Source: Escherichia coli | GTDB lineage: Bacteria; Pseudomonadota; Gammaproteobacteria; Enterobacterales; Enterobacteriaceae | Assembly: GCF_051903065.1 (NCBI RefSeq) | Contig: NZ_CP178438.1 | DNA length: 64,000 bases | Direction: 5' to 3' (one strand) | Part shown: piece by piece, positions 222 to 50,095 of the stretch | Layout of the letters: each line of letters opens with the position of its first letter | Position numbering within the stretch: the stretch's first letter is position 1 | Position numbers and translations under genes: made by a program | The notes under the pieces: model-generated | The model's input: only the letters and a program-made list of their open reading frames with translations | Told to the model about the DNA's origin: nothing | Database searches by the model: none

Positions 222-974
222 TCAGGCAACGTTACGCGTATGACCAGCAAGCTGGGCCAGCGCATCGTTATTTTCGATGGTGATGTATTTACCTTTGACT
301 GCCAGCATACCGCTTTTCTGGAAGCGACCCAGCAGACGGCTGATGGTTTCTACCGTCAGGCCCAGATAGTTACCGATATCGCCACGAGTCATCGTCAGGC
401 GGAATTCACGAGGGGAGAAGCCGCGTTGGGCAAAACGACGGGACAGGTTGTAGATGAATGCAGCCAGACGTTCCTCGGCATTTTTCTTCGACAACAGCAG
501 GATCATGTCCTGATCGCCTTTGATTTCACCGCTCATCAGACGCATCATCTGCTGACGCAGATTCGGCATTTTACCGGACAAATCGTCCAGCGTTTCGAAC
601 GGGATTTCACATACCATCGAGGTTTCCAGCGCCTGCGCGAAGCTCGGGTGATGGCCGCTGCCGATGGCGTCAAATCCCACCAGGTCGCCTGCTAAATGGA
701 AACCAGTGATTTGCTCGTCGCCTTGCTCAGTGATGGTATAACTTTTAATCGTACCGGAGCGGATGGCATAAAGCGATTTAAGTTCATCACCAGCCTTAAA
801 CAGCGTCTGGCCTTTCTGAATAGGCTTCTTCCGCTCAATGATATTATCAAGCTGATCAAGCTCATGTTCGTTGAGTGTGAACGGGATGCAAAGCTGGCTG
901 ATGCTGCAATCCTGGCAATGGATAGCACAACCGCCAGACTGAATGCGCCGTATAATTCGCTTTTCCGGGATCAT
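222..974 (-). CDS. fnr: FNR anaerobic global regulator (CRP/FNR family)
   Basis: ORF 222-1031 contains [29 protein letters not shown] with the N-terminal Cys cluster; start trimmed to the MIPEK Met for a 250-aa product. Confidence 0.96.
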
Positions 975-993: not shown

Positions 994-1007
994 TTGATAT
1001 TTGTCAA
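994..1007. promoter_or_regulatory. FNR-box-like inverted repeat TTGATATTTGTCAA just upstream of the fnr start (autoregulatory site)
   Basis: Matches TTGAT-N4-ATCAA at 13 of 14 positions, about 20 nt upstream of the fnr start codon. Confidence 0.55.
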
Positions 1008-1168
1008 TTTTAACATCTTTTTAGGGAGCAAGTAAGTCTAAGCAAACCTTAACAGCAGAGAATTCCGATATTAGATGTAAATATATGTCTATCTATTTGA
1101 AAACCCTTAAGTTGTTAAGGGTAACTTTACATAAAAGTGTGAACAAGCTGGCACAAATTGTTTAATGT

Positions 1169-3257: not shown

Positions 3258-4692
3258 TTATTTTAAAGGTGACGGTGTCACGTTTTTCGGGATAGGGCAG
3301 TGGTACGGTTGCGTGTCCGTTACTTGCTGATGCTCTTGTTGGCATTCTTGCAATAGCCCTGAATCAAGGAAGAGATTGACTGTGGTTGCTGCCATAGTTT
3401 TCGCCGCCAGCAGCATTCCTTTATGAGCAATAGATGTTCGCCCCTGGCTAACCAGTTGCCACGTATGTAGGGGTGTACCGACGGCAAAACAGGGGCTGAA
3501 ACACTGGGCAACAGGCAGTTTCCAACTGACGTCGCCGACATCAGTCGATGCCGCAAGCACGTTATCGGTGGCGGCATATGGAGCGACTTCATTCGCCAGT
3601 ACCGTTTCACGATGACGTAGTGCAAAAACCTTGCCGTTTTCGCCACCGGTTGCGGCGATATTATTCAGACTGTTTTGCCGATCGTTGGAGGTGAGCGTAG
3701 CCTGAATTTGTTTCGCAAAAGCCAGTTCTTCGGAGTTCCATTCCGGGGTACCAAAATGGGATAGGGCCTGGTACATGGCATTTTCTAAGGTGCGATTCGG
3801 GAGATAACTGGAACAGGCTTTGTCGAAGCGGCATTCAACCTTGGTTTCGGTCATCAATGCCGCACCTTCGGCGATTTTGGCGACCCGATCATAAATATGC
3901 TGCACGTCGGTCATTTCGGGGGCGCGGATAAGATAAAGCACTTCTGCCTGCGCCTGGACCACGTTGGGCGAGATCCCGCCGCTATTTGTGATGGCATAGT
4001 GTACGCGCGCTTTTTCAATAATATGTTCGTTGAGGAAGTTGGTGCCAGTGGTCATCAACGTTACGGCATCAAGGGCGCTGCGTCCCAAATGAGGGGAATT
4101 CGCGGCATGTGCTGCGATCCCTTTAAAGCGCCATGATGCCTGAATGTTTGCCAGCGTGCGGGTATTGAACATACCGGCAAAGGCTTCCGGGTGCCAGGTG
4201 AGTGCCGCATCCACATCATCAAATACCCCCTCGCGAACCATGAACGTTTTACCCGAGCCGCCTTCTTCGCCAGGACAACCATAAAAGCGCACCGTGCCGC
4301 CTTGCCCATATTGTTCCAGCCATTTCTTGACGGCTATTGCAGCGGCAAAGGCGGCGGTTCCCAGCAAATTGTGTCCGCAACCGTGACCATTTTCACCGGG
4401 CGTCACGGATGTAGGTTGCGCGCAACCTGCTTGCTGACTTAAACCTGCCAGGGCGTCATATTCTCCCAGCAGGGCGATAACCGGTTTGCCTTGACCAAAC
4501 GAAGCAATAAAGGCATTTGGGATATTGCCTACGGGTGAAGCCTGCAGATTCCAGCGCCGAAGCCAGATGCTCCGCTGACCAGAACTCTTCAAAACGTGTT
4601 TCTGGATGATCCCAGATTTGATCGGCAATATCGGTATAACGTTGGCGATCGGCTTCAATCGCATCGTCGATAAAACGATAGATTTCCTGCAT
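3258..4692 (-). pseudogene. abgB: p-aminobenzoyl-glutamate hydrolase subunit B (M20 peptidase), reading frame disrupted near 4530-4540
   Basis: N-terminus MQEIYRFIDDAIEADRQRYTDIADQIWDHPETRFEEFWSAEHLASALESAGFT is in one frame (ORF 4456-4692); the rest from VGNIPNAFIASFGQGKPVIALLGEYD is in the adjacent frame (ORF 3258-4664); the switch is at a GGG run, plus-strand 4533-4535. Confidence 0.8.
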
Positions 4693-7086: not shown

Positions 7087-7093
7087 AACTGCA

Positions 7094-7188
7094 TAAAAAA
7101 ATAGAGTCTGTCGACATCCGCCAGACTCTACAGTACACACAGCAGTGCATCCGCGTCTTAAATCCGGCATTGTCTCCTCTGCGCCGGT
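7094..7188 (-). ncRNA. mcaS: McaS (IsrA) small RNA with intrinsic terminator
   Basis: abgR-smrA intergenic; minus-strand hairpin TAGAGTCTG / CAGACTCTA (7102-7130) followed by a U7 tract; TATAAC -10 box just upstream of the predicted 5' end; about 95 nt, matching the known position. Confidence 0.7.
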
Positions 7189-9465: not shown

Positions 9466-10470
<1,005 letters not shown>

Positions 10471-10516
10471 CAAAAGCAATTTTTCCGGCTGTCTGTATAC
10501 AAAAACGCCGCAAAGT

Positions 10517-10530
10517 TTGAGCGAAGTCAA
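10517..10530. promoter_or_regulatory. FNR-box-like site TTGAGCGAAGTCAA upstream of fnrS
   Basis: TTGAN-N4-NTCAA half-sites centred about 41 nt upstream of the predicted fnrS 5' end, with a CAATAT -10-like hexamer at 10553-10558. Confidence 0.55.
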
Positions 10531-10565
10531 TAAACTCTCTACCCATTCAGGGCAATATCTCTCTT

Positions 10566-10687
10566 GCAGGTGAATGCAACGTCAAGCGATGGGCGTTGCG
10601 CTCCATATTGTCTTACTTCCTTTTTTGAATTACTGCATAGCACAATTGATTCGTACGACGCCGACTTTGATGAGTCGGCTTTTTTTT
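10566..10687 (+). ncRNA. fnrS: FnrS small RNA (FNR-activated) with intrinsic terminator
   Basis: zntB-dbpA intergenic; canonical terminator GCCGACT-ttgatga-GTCGGC then T8 (10660-10687); C/U-rich single-stranded stretch CTTACTTCCTTTTTT; about 122 nt. Confidence 0.7.
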
Positions 10688-10744
10688 GCCTGTTATTTAT
10701 CAGCGTCTACCCTTTAAGAGTCCACCCAATGACCAGAGGGAAAT

Positions 10745-10918
10745 ATGACGACACTTATTTATTTGCAAATTCCTGTCCCTGAACCGATTCCTGGCGATCC
10801 TGTTCCAGTGCCCGATCCGATCCCTCGCCCGCAACCCATGCCTGACCCACCACCCGATGAAGAACCGATTAAATTGTCGCATCGTGAACGTAGATCTGCG
10901 AGGATACGCGCCTGCTAA
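10745..10918 (+). CDS. hypothetical proline-rich small protein (57 aa) upstream of dbpA
   Basis: ATG at 10745 with GAGGG Shine-Dalgarno 6 nt upstream; translation MTTLIYLQIPVPEPIPGDPVPVPDPIPRPQPMPDPPPDEEPIKLSHRERRSARIRAC; below the 60-aa cut-off of the ORF track. Confidence 0.3.
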   Translation: MTTLIYLQIPVPEPIPGDPVPVPDPIPRPQPMPDPPPDEEPIKLSHRERRSARIRAC

Positions 10919-10947: not shown

Positions 10948-12321
10948 GTGACCGCTTTTTCTACCCTGAATGTTTTGCCTCCCGCCCAACTCACGAACCT
11001 TAATGAGTTGGGTTATTTAACCATGACGCCGGTGCAGGCCGCCGCGCTTCCGGCGATCCTTGCCGGAAAAGATGTTCGCGTGCAGGCGAAAACCGGCAGC
11101 GGCAAAACGGCGGCTTTTGGCCTCGGCTTGTTACAGCAAATTGATGCGTCGCTATTTCAAACCCAGGCTTTAGTGCTGTGTCCTACGCGTGAACTGGCGG
11201 ATCAGGTGGCAGGTGAATTGCGTCGGCTGGCGCGTTTTCTGCCAAATACCAAAATTTTGACGTTGTGCGGTGGTCAACCGTTCGGTATGCAGCGTGATTC
11301 GTTGCAACATGCGCCGCATATTATCGTGGCAACGCCGGGTCGTTTGCTGGATCACTTGCAAAAAGGCACGGTATCACTGGATGCGCTGAATACTTTGGTG
11401 ATGGATGAGGCCGACCGCATGCTGGATATGGGATTTAGCGATGCCATTGATGATGTCATCCGTTTTGCGCCTGCATCTCGACAGACGCTTCTGTTTTCGG
11501 CAACCTGGCCGGAAGCCATCGCTGCAATCAGCGGACGAGTGCAACGCGATCCTTTGGCGATTGAAATTGACTCAACAGATGCTTTGCCACCCATTGATCA
11601 ACAATTTTATGAGACATCCAGTAAAGGCAAAATTCCTCTGTTGCAACGGTTATTAAGCTTGCATCAGCCATCCTCTTGCGTGGTGTTTTGCAATACCAAA
11701 AAAGATTGCCAGGCTGTCTGCGACGCGCTGAATGAAGTAGGGCAAAGTGCATTGTCATTACACGGCGATTTGGAGCAACGCGATCGTGATCAGACCTTGG
11801 TACGTTTTGCTAACGGTAGCGCCCGTGCACTGGTCGCGACTGATGTTGCTGCGCGTGGTCTGGATATTAAATCGCTTGAGCTGGTGGTGAACTTTGAGCT
11901 GGCGTGGGACCCTGAAGTTCATGTACATCGCATCGGTCGTACAGCTCGTGCAGGAAATAGCGGTCTGGCGATCAGTTTCTGTGCTCCGGAAGAAGCACAG
12001 CGGGCCAATATCATTTCTGACATGTTGCAGATAAAACTTAACTGGCAAACGCCGCCAGCTAATAGTTCCATTGTGACGCTGGAAGCAGAAATGGCAACGT
12101 TGTGTATCGATGGCGGGAAAAAAGCCAAAATGCGCCCGGGTGATGTATTAGGTGCACTGACAGGAGATATCGGGCTTGATGGCGCAGATATTGGCAAAAT
12201 CGCCGTGCATCCGGCGCATGTCTATGTCGCGGTCCGTCAGGCTGTTGCTCATAAAGCATGGAAACAGTTACAGGGCGGGAAGATTAAAGGAAAAACGTGC
12301 CGGGTGCGGTTATTAAAATAA
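10948..12321 (+). CDS. dbpA: DEAD-box ATP-dependent RNA helicase (23S rRNA specific)
   Basis: 457-aa ORF with GTG start, Walker A (AKTGSGKT), DEAD box (VMDEADRMLDMGF), SAT and HRIGRTAR motifs. Confidence 0.95.
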   Translation: MTAFSTLNVLPPAQLTNLNELGYLTMTPVQAAALPAILAGKDVRVQAKTGSGKTAAFGLGLLQQIDASLFQTQALVLCPTRELADQVAGELRRLARFLPNTKILTLCGGQPFGMQRDSLQHAPHIIVATPGRLLDHLQKGTVSLDALNTLVMDEADRMLDMGFSDAIDDVIRFAPASRQTLLFSATWPEAIAAISGRVQRDPLAIEIDSTDALPPIDQQFYETSSKGKIPLLQRLLSLHQPSSCVVFCNTKKDCQAVCDALNEVGQSALSLHGDLEQRDRDQTLVRFANGSARALVATDVAARGLDIKSLELVVNFELAWDPEVHVHRIGRTARAGNSGLAISFCAPEEAQRANIISDMLQIKLNWQTPPANSSIVTLEAEMATLCIDGGKKAKMRPGDVLGALTGDIGLDGADIGKIAVHPAHVYVAVRQAVAHKAWKQLQGGKIKGKTCRVRLLK

Positions 12322-12449: not shown

Positions 12450-13385
12450 TTATTTCACTTCAACCACATTCAGCCGTAACTCATCCAACTGATTTTCATC
12501 TTCTTCTGGCTGCCAGCCCGCCGGTTGTAGTGGGATCTCTTCGCGATCAAACGCCAGATCACCCCCGTTAACCACTTCAGAACCGTGGGTGATGCCTTTG
12601 AAATCGAACAGGTTGGTATCGCACAGATGCGACGGCACCACATTCTGCATCGCGCTGAACATCGTCTCGATACGCCCTGGATAACGTTTATCCCAGTCAC
12701 GCAACATGTCAGCAATCACCTGACGTTGCAGGTTAGGCTGTGAACCGCACAGGTTGCACGGAATAATCGGGAACGCTTTTGCATCGGCAAATCGCTGAAT
12801 ATCTTTCTCGCGGCAGTAGGCCAGCGGACGAATAACGATATGTTTGCCATCATCGCTCATCAGTTTCGGAGGCATACCTTTCATCTTGCCGCCGTAGAAC
12901 ATATTTAAGAACAACGTTTGCAGGATATCGTCACGATGGTGGCCCAACGCGATCTTCGTCGCCCCCAGTTCCGTTGCGGTGCGATAAAGGATACCGCGAC
13001 GTAGCCGAGAACACAGTGAGCAAGTGGTTTTGCCCTCTGGAATCTTCTCTTTCACGATACCGTAAGTGTTCTCTTCAACAATCTTGTACTCAACGCCCAG
13101 CTTTTCAAGATACTCGGGCAGAACGTGTTCCGGGAAGCCCGGTTGCTTTTGATCGAGGTTAACAGCCACCAGCGAAAAATTGATTGGCGCGCTTTGCTGC
13201 AAATTGCGCAGAATCTCCAGCATGGTATAGCTGTCTTTACCCCCGGAGAGGCAAACCATGATGCGATCGCCTTCTTCAATCATATTGAAGTCAGCAATGG
13301 CTTCGCCCACGTTACGACGCAGGCGTTTTTGTAATTTGTTCAGATTGTATTGTTCTTTCTTGCTAATTTCTTGATTTTGCGACAT
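12450..13385 (-). CDS. ttcA: tRNA 2-thiocytidine(32) synthetase
   Basis: 311-aa ORF with PP-loop SGGKDS and CxxC pairs (CSLCSR, CNLCGS). Confidence 0.93.
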
Positions 13386-13524
13386 TTAAAAGCGACTCAA
13401 TTCGTTATATGGCATCAGAAGAGTATGCGTCATGCCGGAACGCCCAGCATAAGAAATCTGATATAAAAACTGTGGCGTGTATGGTACGGATTAGAGGGGA
13501 AAATGTCAGCACATTTGCGAAATG

Positions 13525-13553
13525 AATCAAAAAGCCCGCAGCAATGTGCGGGC
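13525..13553 (-). terminator. intrinsic terminator downstream of uspF
   Basis: Minus-strand hairpin GCCCGCA-cattgc-TGCGGGC followed by a T-rich run (TTTTTGATTCATTT). Confidence 0.55.
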
Positions 13554-13560
13554 GTTAGTG

Positions 13561-14076
<516 letters not shown>

Positions 14077-14135
14077 TTAGATCAAAGGAGGAAGAATAAG
14101 CAGAAAAAGCCCGCCATAACAGCGGGCAGGAGGAT

Positions 14136-15269: not shown

Positions 15270-15496
15270 TGAATAAATCCTTTAGTTATTTTATTTGCCT
15301 TTTATCCCCATTTCGGGGAGTGAAAACATCCTAAAGGAGAAGTTCAGTTAGCCGATAAATATCATTTGTTACGCCTTAAGTAAAACCTTAATCAAATAAT
15401 TCCTCTGAAATGATAATAAGTCTGGTGAATGTATCGAAGATAATACATACAAAATAAAAATTATACTTTTAATTTTCTATACGTTATTCTGCGCGG

Positions 15497-15606
15497 GTTA
15501 TATGCCTTTATTGTCACAGATTTTATTTTTTGTTGGGCCATTGCATTGCCACTGATTTTCCAACATATAAAAAGACAAGCCCGAACAGTCGTCCGGGCTT
15601 TTTTTT
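15497..15606 (+). ncRNA. micC: MicC small RNA (ompC regulator) with intrinsic terminator
   Basis: ompN-pfo intergenic; begins GTTATATGCCTTTATTGTCACAGATTTTATTTT and ends with hairpin GCCCG-aacagtcgtc-CGGGC plus T8 (15579-15606); about 110 nt, divergent from ompN. Confidence 0.85.
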
Positions 15607-15634
15607 AGAATTGGATAATCCTTATCCAGAGCAT

Positions 15635-45698: not shown

Positions 45699-45856
45699 AT
45701 GATTCCTGACTTTTATTTCTGCCTTTTATTCCTTTTACACTTGTTTTTATGAAGCCCTTCACAGAATTGTCCTTTCACGATGCCGTCTCTCTGATGATTG
45801 ATGTTAATTAACAATGCATTTACCAAAAACAAACATATAAATCACAGGAGTCGCCC

Positions 45857-49068: not shown

Positions 49069-49132
49069 AAGAAAACGCCTGTACTAAAACCGACCCGTGG
49101 TACAGGCGAAGAATACGGGTCTACATCGGAAG
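49069..49132 (-). ncRNA. rydC: RydC small RNA (pseudoknotted, Hfq-dependent)
   Basis: cybB-ydcA intergenic; minus strand CUUCCGAUGUAGACCCGUAUUCUUCGCCUGUACCACGGGUCGGUUUUAGUACAGGCGUUUUCUU, 64 nt ending in a U-rich tail; 8-bp inverted repeat GCCTGTAC / GTACAGGC. Confidence 0.55.
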
Positions 49133-49547: not shown

Positions 49548-49734
<187 letters not shown>

Positions 49735-49755
<21 letters not shown>

Positions 49756-49810
49756 TCGTTGGCCTCGGTTGATAGAAATATCGGTCGGGGCCTTCGTCTT
49801 TCTGATTCCC
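49735..49810 (+). ncRNA. sokB: sokB antisense RNA (approximate position)
   Basis: Inferred only from hok/sok architecture (antisense to the mokB start region); boundaries not resolved. Confidence 0.3.
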
Positions 49811-50095
49811 GGTTAGCCTGAAAACAGAAAGTCTCAGGCACCCGTGAGCATCCTATGTGGTTTCCTTAGGGACGAAAATAATCACCTGACGAAATTGCGT
49901 GCTGTTTTCCAGAATTTTTCGTCATTCGGGTTAGCCAGTTTAACCATTCGTTACTCTCTTCATTCCAATGGCATTAATCTTCTCTGCAATAATTGTTGTA
50001 AAAATGTGACGCAAAGAGGCTTTTAGTCGTAAGTAATTACCGTCAAATGCCGATGACTTTCTATCAGGAGTAAACCTGGACGAGAGACAACGGTA

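Follow-up and report, generated by a model that had tools for sequence, protein, structure and literature searches.

Is the segment between positions 10517 and 10687 a small RNA gene switched on by FNR when oxygen is absent, and does it matter that the gene for the regulator itself lies a few kilobases away? The window, by which we mean the whole stretch of 64,000 nucleotides that was analysed, is a part of the Escherichia coli chromosome that runs from fnr through fnrS and onward, and the whole of the fnrS transcription unit lies at 10517-10687. The RefSeq non-coding RNA fnrS of K-12 (b4699, 122 nt) maps exactly to positions 10566-10687 on the plus strand, and fnrS with its promoter and flanks (10440-10760, 321 bp) is 100% identical to K-12 MG1655. 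Moreover, the 601 bp around fnrS are found in 5,393 of 5,426 complete E. coli genomes. When the whole window was scanned with Rfam, the FnrS family (RF01796) matched 10566-10683 with 134.8 bits (E = 4.4e-24; gathering score, 60), and the match is full length, covering model positions 1-119 of 119. The end of the gene at 10687, put forward in the original prediction, is borne out by the mapping of b4699. According to the annotation of identical and near-identical genomes, fnrS lies between zntB (ydaN), whose open reading frame ends at 10470, and dbpA, whose open reading frame starts at 10948; the only reading frames that overlap fnrS are short and unsupported. The locus does not just resemble FnrS, its class II FNR promoter and the autoregulated fnr gene: it is these elements themselves, base for base. 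All three (fnrS, its class II FNR site and the autorepression of fnr) are already known, having been published before and characterised between 2007 and 2013. To the explanation as a whole, that is, an fnrS unit activated by FNR from a site centred at -42.5 together with self-repression of fnr from a site centred at -0.5, we assign a probability of about 97%. The present analysis itself shows the identity of the sequences, their geometry, the RNA family to which fnrS belongs and that both boxes are deeply conserved at a fixed place; FNR occupancy, the anaerobic recruitment of σ70 and FNR-dependent regulation come from the literature on the identical K-12 sequence.

fnrS codes for a 122-nt Hfq-dependent small RNA (10566-10687, plus strand), and the architecture expected of FnrS is present in all its parts: a 5' stem-loop, a C/U-rich single strand, a second stem-loop and a U-tailed intrinsic terminator. 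The transcription start is set at G10566, because the numbering of published mutants fits the sequence at no other start; PMC8595263 relays these as fnrS-III (G4C, G5U), fnrS-II (C47A, U48A, U49G) and fnrS-I (U57A, U58G, U59A). The 5' stem-loop occupies nt 4-39 (10569-10604) in the minimum free energy fold, with a core helix that pairs nt 10-18 with nt 27-35. The same core helix is recovered by Alifold with few compensatory changes (U-G to A-U, G-C to A-U and C-G to U-A), and the Rfam structure line agrees with it; the 5' half of the RNA is nearly invariant in the 116 species compared below. The C/U-rich region for target pairing, CUUACUUCCUUUUUU (nt 47-61; 10612-10626, plus strand), is mostly free of pairing in the minimum free energy fold, and the Rfam consensus structure leaves it unpaired as well; the mutations of fnrS-II (nt 47-49) and fnrS-I (nt 57-59), published as pairing mutants and relayed in PMC8595263, fall within it. 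Rfam and the fold also agree on a second stem-loop (nt 62-87; 10627-10652). A terminator scan and the fold place the intrinsic terminator at 10660-10687, where a GC-rich 8-bp stem, GCCGACTT/GAGTCGGC, is followed by T8; the stem covaries across the 116 species (A-U/G-C and C-G/U-A). The folding energy of FnrS as a whole is ordinary for its composition (z = -1.67).

Upstream of the gene, the 14-mer TTGAGCGAAGTCAA is found at 10517-10530 on the plus strand, where the original prediction had placed it. It retains 8 of the 10 positions of TTGAT-N4-ATCAA, with the TTGA and TCAA cores both intact and a G at positions 5 and 10 as the two departures. Its centre, 10523.5, lies at -42.5 from the start at 10566. 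Class II FNR sites are those centred at -41.5 +/- 4 nt in Myers et al. (2013; PMC3688515), and the class II distance that the original prediction had proposed from the predicted start is thus the value published for K-12: in Table 1 of the same study fnrS has an FNR ChIP-seq peak (K-12 coordinate 1,407,150) with one site at -42.5 and is listed as directly activated. Sequence, conservation and published ChIP-seq together identify TTGAGCGAAGTCAA as the site from which FNR activates fnrS in class II fashion, and the exact 14-mer is listed in Table S6 of Myers et al. (2013; PMC3688515) as bound in ChIP-seq, with a PatSer score of 13.21. The -10 hexamer is CAATAT (10553-10558, plus strand; -13 to -8), with a conserved G at 10552 directly 5' of it, and a usable -35 hexamer is lacking. 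A consensus scan of 10400-10800 found no complete σ70 promoter, since a promoter that depends on an activator is expected to lack one. The anaerobic induction on which the original prediction had staked its case is answered by published data for this promoter: σ70 occupancy in ChIP-seq rises from 54.19 under aerobic conditions to 11,803.3 under anaerobic conditions (Table S2, PMC3688515).

To examine the promoter across species, one genome per species was scanned for the conserved core of FnrS, which gave 120 loci across the Enterobacterales; in 116 of them the flank was long enough for the promoters to be compared, as an ungapped stack on +1. In these 116 species the columns of the FNR box are the most conserved positions upstream of fnrS, at 1.6-2.0 bits, and in 110 of the species the centre of the box falls at -42.5. 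The half-sites read TTGA/TCAA in 84 species and CTGA/TCAA in 22, and 80% of the orthologous boxes score no lower than the weakest ChIP-bound site in the training set of the weight matrix described below. GCAnnnT at -14 to -8 is 95-98% conserved, and the spacer between the box and the -10 hexamer is essentially unconstrained.

The regulator is encoded 9.5 kb away. The fnr coding sequence (222-974, minus strand; 250 aa) is identified by the list of open reading frames, by its translation and by the annotation of matching genomes, and its start codon lies at 974. The second 14-mer of the original prediction, TTGATATTTGTCAA, is present at 994-1007 and reads TTGACAAATATCAA on the gene strand (minus). 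Table 1 of Myers et al. (2013; PMC3688515) lists for fnr a ChIP peak with one site at -0.5 and direct repression, and the published centre therefore places the fnr start at 1000; in Table S6 the 14-mer is ChIP-bound, with a PatSer score of 13.66. The -10 hexamer read from the sequence is TAAAAT (1007-1012, minus strand; -12 to -7). Its last base is the first base of the FNR box, a 1-base overlap, and the box covers the start site; the promoter on the gene strand reads GTTAAAATTGACAAATATCAAT. The site does, then, overlap the fnr promoter as had been supposed. σ70 occupancy at fnr falls from 2,645 aerobically to 1,172 anaerobically (Table S2, PMC3688515), and the negative autoregulation of fnr is attributed by Myers et al. 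(2013; PMC3688515) to Mettert and Kiley (2007; their ref. 138). The consensus scan found no σ70 promoter at the fnr locus, a result that is uninformative for this gene. Over the 241 bp from 940 to 1180 the sequence is the same as in K-12. Deeper conservation is seen in a metagenome scan for the N-terminal cysteine cluster of FNR, which yielded 96 distinct fnr upstream regions: TTGA-N6-TCAA occurs no more than 100 nt from the start codon in 77 of them, where 0.33 would be expected, and in 72 of these 77 (72 of the 96 regions) the box directly follows a -10-like hexamer. The modal position of the box, 26.5 nt before the ATG, is its position in the window, and GTTAAAAT followed by TGAC is conserved across the fnr loci.

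Mettert and Kiley reportedly described in 2007 a second, upstream site at fnr, at -103.5, which we take to correspond to TTGAAAACCCTTAA (1097-1110). As an FNR site this sequence is unsupported: its weight matrix score is -0.88, rank 502 in the window. It overlaps a perfect hairpin, ACCCTTAA-N4-TTAAGGGT (1105-1124), which has a T-run after it on the minus strand and looks like the ogt terminator.

What, then, do the motifs say by themselves? There are 4 copies of the strict core TTGA-N6-TCAA in the window, where 1.69 are expected, and at least 4 were obtained in 8 of 100 shuffles; for the degenerate consensus TTGAT-N4-ATCAA, with 2 mismatches or fewer allowed, the count is 54 and the expectation 38.9. 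Neither form is enriched in the window, and motif counting was rejected as a test of significance. The strict-core matches other than the fnr and fnrS boxes, inside ydbD (34321) and opgD (54768), are put down to chance. A position weight matrix was built from 60 ChIP-seq-bound FNR sites (Table S6 of Myers et al., 2013), with the three sites of the window left out; bound sites score between 11.7 and 20.8. The scan proposed in the original prediction recovers both boxes, the fnr box in second place (994-1007; 14.81) and the fnrS box only in fourth (10517-10530; 13.04), both bound according to Table S6. The best score of the window, 16.45, belongs to TTAATTTAGATCAA (14072-14085), which is likewise bound; it lies 83.5 nt upstream of the start codon of uspF (13995, minus strand) and had been overlooked by the original prediction. 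Third comes TTGATGTTAATTAA (45798-45811; 13.85), near aldA, which is listed as not bound; σ70 occupancy at the aldA promoter goes from 306.7 aerobically to -9.4 anaerobically (Myers et al., 2013; PMC3688515). In a random 64 kb of the same composition, 1.45 matches are expected at or above the score of the fnrS box and 0.47 at that of the fnr box. As bare motif matches the fnrS and fnr boxes are thus within chance and not significant, and the support for both comes instead from their position, their conservation and published ChIP occupancy.

The same chance expectation could be turned into another reading of the locus, in which TTGAGCGAAGTCAA is a fortuitous motif and fnrS is either constitutive or under a different oxygen-responsive regulator, such as ArcA, CRP or IHF. 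That the similarly scoring site near aldA is listed as unbound would fit such a reading, and Durand and Storz are said to have seen smaller effects of arcA and crp mutations, which also counts in its favour. IHF, for its part, is flagged as enriched by ChIP-chip over the fnrS site (Table S6 of Myers et al., 2013; PMC3688515). A chance motif would not, however, be expected to be the most conserved feature upstream of the gene and to keep a fixed position while the spacer around it is free to vary; the stretch from -80 to -66 contains no conserved ArcA-like or CRP-like motif in the 116 species; and the published ChIP data for the fnrS box contradict the idea. Moreover, according to PMC3688515, which refers to its refs 48 and 49, the anaerobic induction of FnrS is lost when the box is mutated or fnr is deleted. 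We regard control by something other than FNR as scarcely credible. No better placed is the proposal that the transcript is a processed 3' untranslated region of zntB or a leader for ynaL and dbpA. It draws on the crowding of the region, as fnrS starts 96 nt past the zntB stop (10470) and ynaL (10745-10918), a small proline-rich open reading frame of 57 aa on the same strand, starts 58 nt past the fnrS terminator. Against it, fnrS has a conserved promoter of its own, with FNR box and -10 hexamer at fixed distances from the conserved 5' end GCAGGUGA; it ends in a strong GC-rich 8-bp hairpin followed by U8; and it is annotated, and published (PMC8595263), as a 122-nt primary small RNA. Some read-through of the terminator into ynaL may occur; a separate, FNR-activated fnrS unit is by a very wide margin the better account of the transcript.

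The proximity of regulator and target has to be weighed separately. The original prediction placed fnrS about 9.5 kb from fnr, which is accurate: between the fnr ATG and the fnrS start there are 9,592 bp, from box to box 9,523 bp, and between the two ChIP peaks reported by Myers et al. (2013; PMC3688515) 9,546 bp. Selection for such proximity, through the local concentration of the regulator or the co-inheritance of regulator and target, might be suspected from the fact that fnr and fnrS lie 4.5-9.6 kb apart and divergent in E. coli, in Citrobacter youngae and in two other loci. Synteny was compared in a limited test, the loci being short. Eleven fnrS loci extend 9.7 kb or more upstream (Photorhabdus, Erwinia, Edwardsiella, Serratia and Dickeya among them), and fnr is present in none; of the 38 fnr loci that extend 5 kb or more upstream, just 1 includes fnrS. 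FNR is, in addition, a global regulator that can diffuse and that binds dozens of sites across the chromosome. On this short-locus synteny evidence, which gave no sign that the 9.5-kb linkage is of functional importance, a functional linkage was rejected, and we hold it to be very improbable; the co-location is a lineage-specific synteny that is not conserved outside the Escherichia/Citrobacter group.

With FNR as the activator of an independent fnrS unit, a pathway can be proposed. In the absence of oxygen, dimeric [4Fe-4S] FNR, encoded 9.5 kb away, would bind the box at -42.5 and, from there, would recruit σ70 RNA polymerase in a class II manner to a promoter that has no -35 element. The contacts made with polymerase at fnrS would be those that are generally known for class II promoters. 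Together with Hfq, FnrS would then pair with mRNAs that are not needed anaerobically and reduce their expression, so extending the FNR regulon to negative targets; according to PMC3688515 and PMC8595263, FnrS lowers the expression of the sodB, gpmA, cydDC and metE mRNAs. Repression of mRNAs by FnrS would account for part of the indirect FNR regulon. At the same time, FNR would bind TTGACAAATATCAA, at -0.5 of its own promoter, resulting in negative autoregulation; the position of the box over the start site, and its 1-base overlap with the -10 hexamer, point to occlusion of polymerase and hence to repression. The claim that regulator, autoregulatory site and small RNA target all lie within the window holds in each of its elements and adds nothing new to what had been published. 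The locus is useful, rather, as a positive control: a scan that flags fnrS reads promoters and small RNAs correctly.

The comparison of promoters also draws attention to two features beyond the core of the site. An A-tract, AAAAA (10501-10505, plus strand), lies at -65 to -61 of fnrS, about two helical turns upstream of the centre of the FNR box, and reaches 1.2-1.5 bits at -63/-62 in the 116 species, with the adjoining columns near 0. Judging from its placement, it could be a candidate docking site for the αCTD, a UP-like contact, or it could be tied to the reported enrichment of IHF. The other feature is the left half-site, which is imperfect in each lineage by one mismatch, at a position that differs: the box at -49 to -36 reads CTGATC-N4-(A/G)TCAA in the Erwiniaceae (Pantoea, Erwinia, Tatumella, Rosenbergiella and Mixta) and TTGAGC-N4-(A/G)TCAA in the Enterobacteriaceae, so that the left half-site is CTGAT in the former and TTGAG in the latter. 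That no lineage has a perfect left half-site suggests selection for a sub-maximal affinity for FNR. If so, FnrS would be turned on only when the level of active FNR is high. We propose only tentatively, from these patterns of conservation, that the A-tract and the imperfect half-site may be functional elements that tune the fnrS promoter, and we think it somewhat doubtful. In any event, the footprints at 116 fnrS and 96 distinct fnr promoters provide a collection of natural FNR-box variants whose position is fixed, and it could inform experiments on the tuning of affinity.

Other parts of the window deserve mention. abgB (3258-4692, minus strand) has an 11-bp deletion, GTTACCCGCAA, at about 4533, after nt 159 of the gene; relative to K-12 and to strain 23CRST027, it shifts the frame and leads to a stop near codon 79. 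Of the 4,199 complete E. coli genomes with a match to the stretch, not one has the deletion, and all align at 88% with a gap; the deletion is either a private mutation that makes a pseudogene or a sequence error. The 23-kb cryptic prophage Rac, which in K-12 lies between ttcA and uspF, is absent here (13385-13560); ttcA (12450-13385) is directly followed by uspF, ompN and micC, as in strain 23CRST027. Further small RNAs at or above the Rfam gathering score are McaS (7093-7188, minus strand), MicC (15494-15614, plus strand), RydC (49069-49132, minus strand) and Sok (49692-49843, minus strand), the last being the antisense RNA of a hok/sok locus.

How the locus relates to known systems can be stated closely. 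Set against FnrS of K-12 (b4699; RF01796; Durand & Storz, 2010; Boysen et al., 2010), the gene, promoter and flanks are identical, the neighbours are the same (zntB upstream and ynaL-dbpA downstream) and so is the FNR box at -42.5. There is no difference at the fnrS locus, and the strain departs from K-12 elsewhere, in the missing Rac prophage and the 11-bp deletion in abgB. The negative autoregulation of fnr in K-12 is matched just as fully, with the same box at -0.5, the same cover of the start site and the same 1-base overlap with TAAAAT, in a promoter without difference. The class II FNR promoters of narG, nirB, dmsA, ydfZ and ydhY are likewise built around a single box over the -35 region, with a -10 hexamer, no -35 hexamer and an anaerobic gain of σ70. 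The box of fnrS is centred at -42.5, as at ydhY, whereas the modal centre of class II promoters is -41.5; fnrS differs further from the promoters named in the two departures of its box from the consensus and in the conserved A-tract at -65 to -61.
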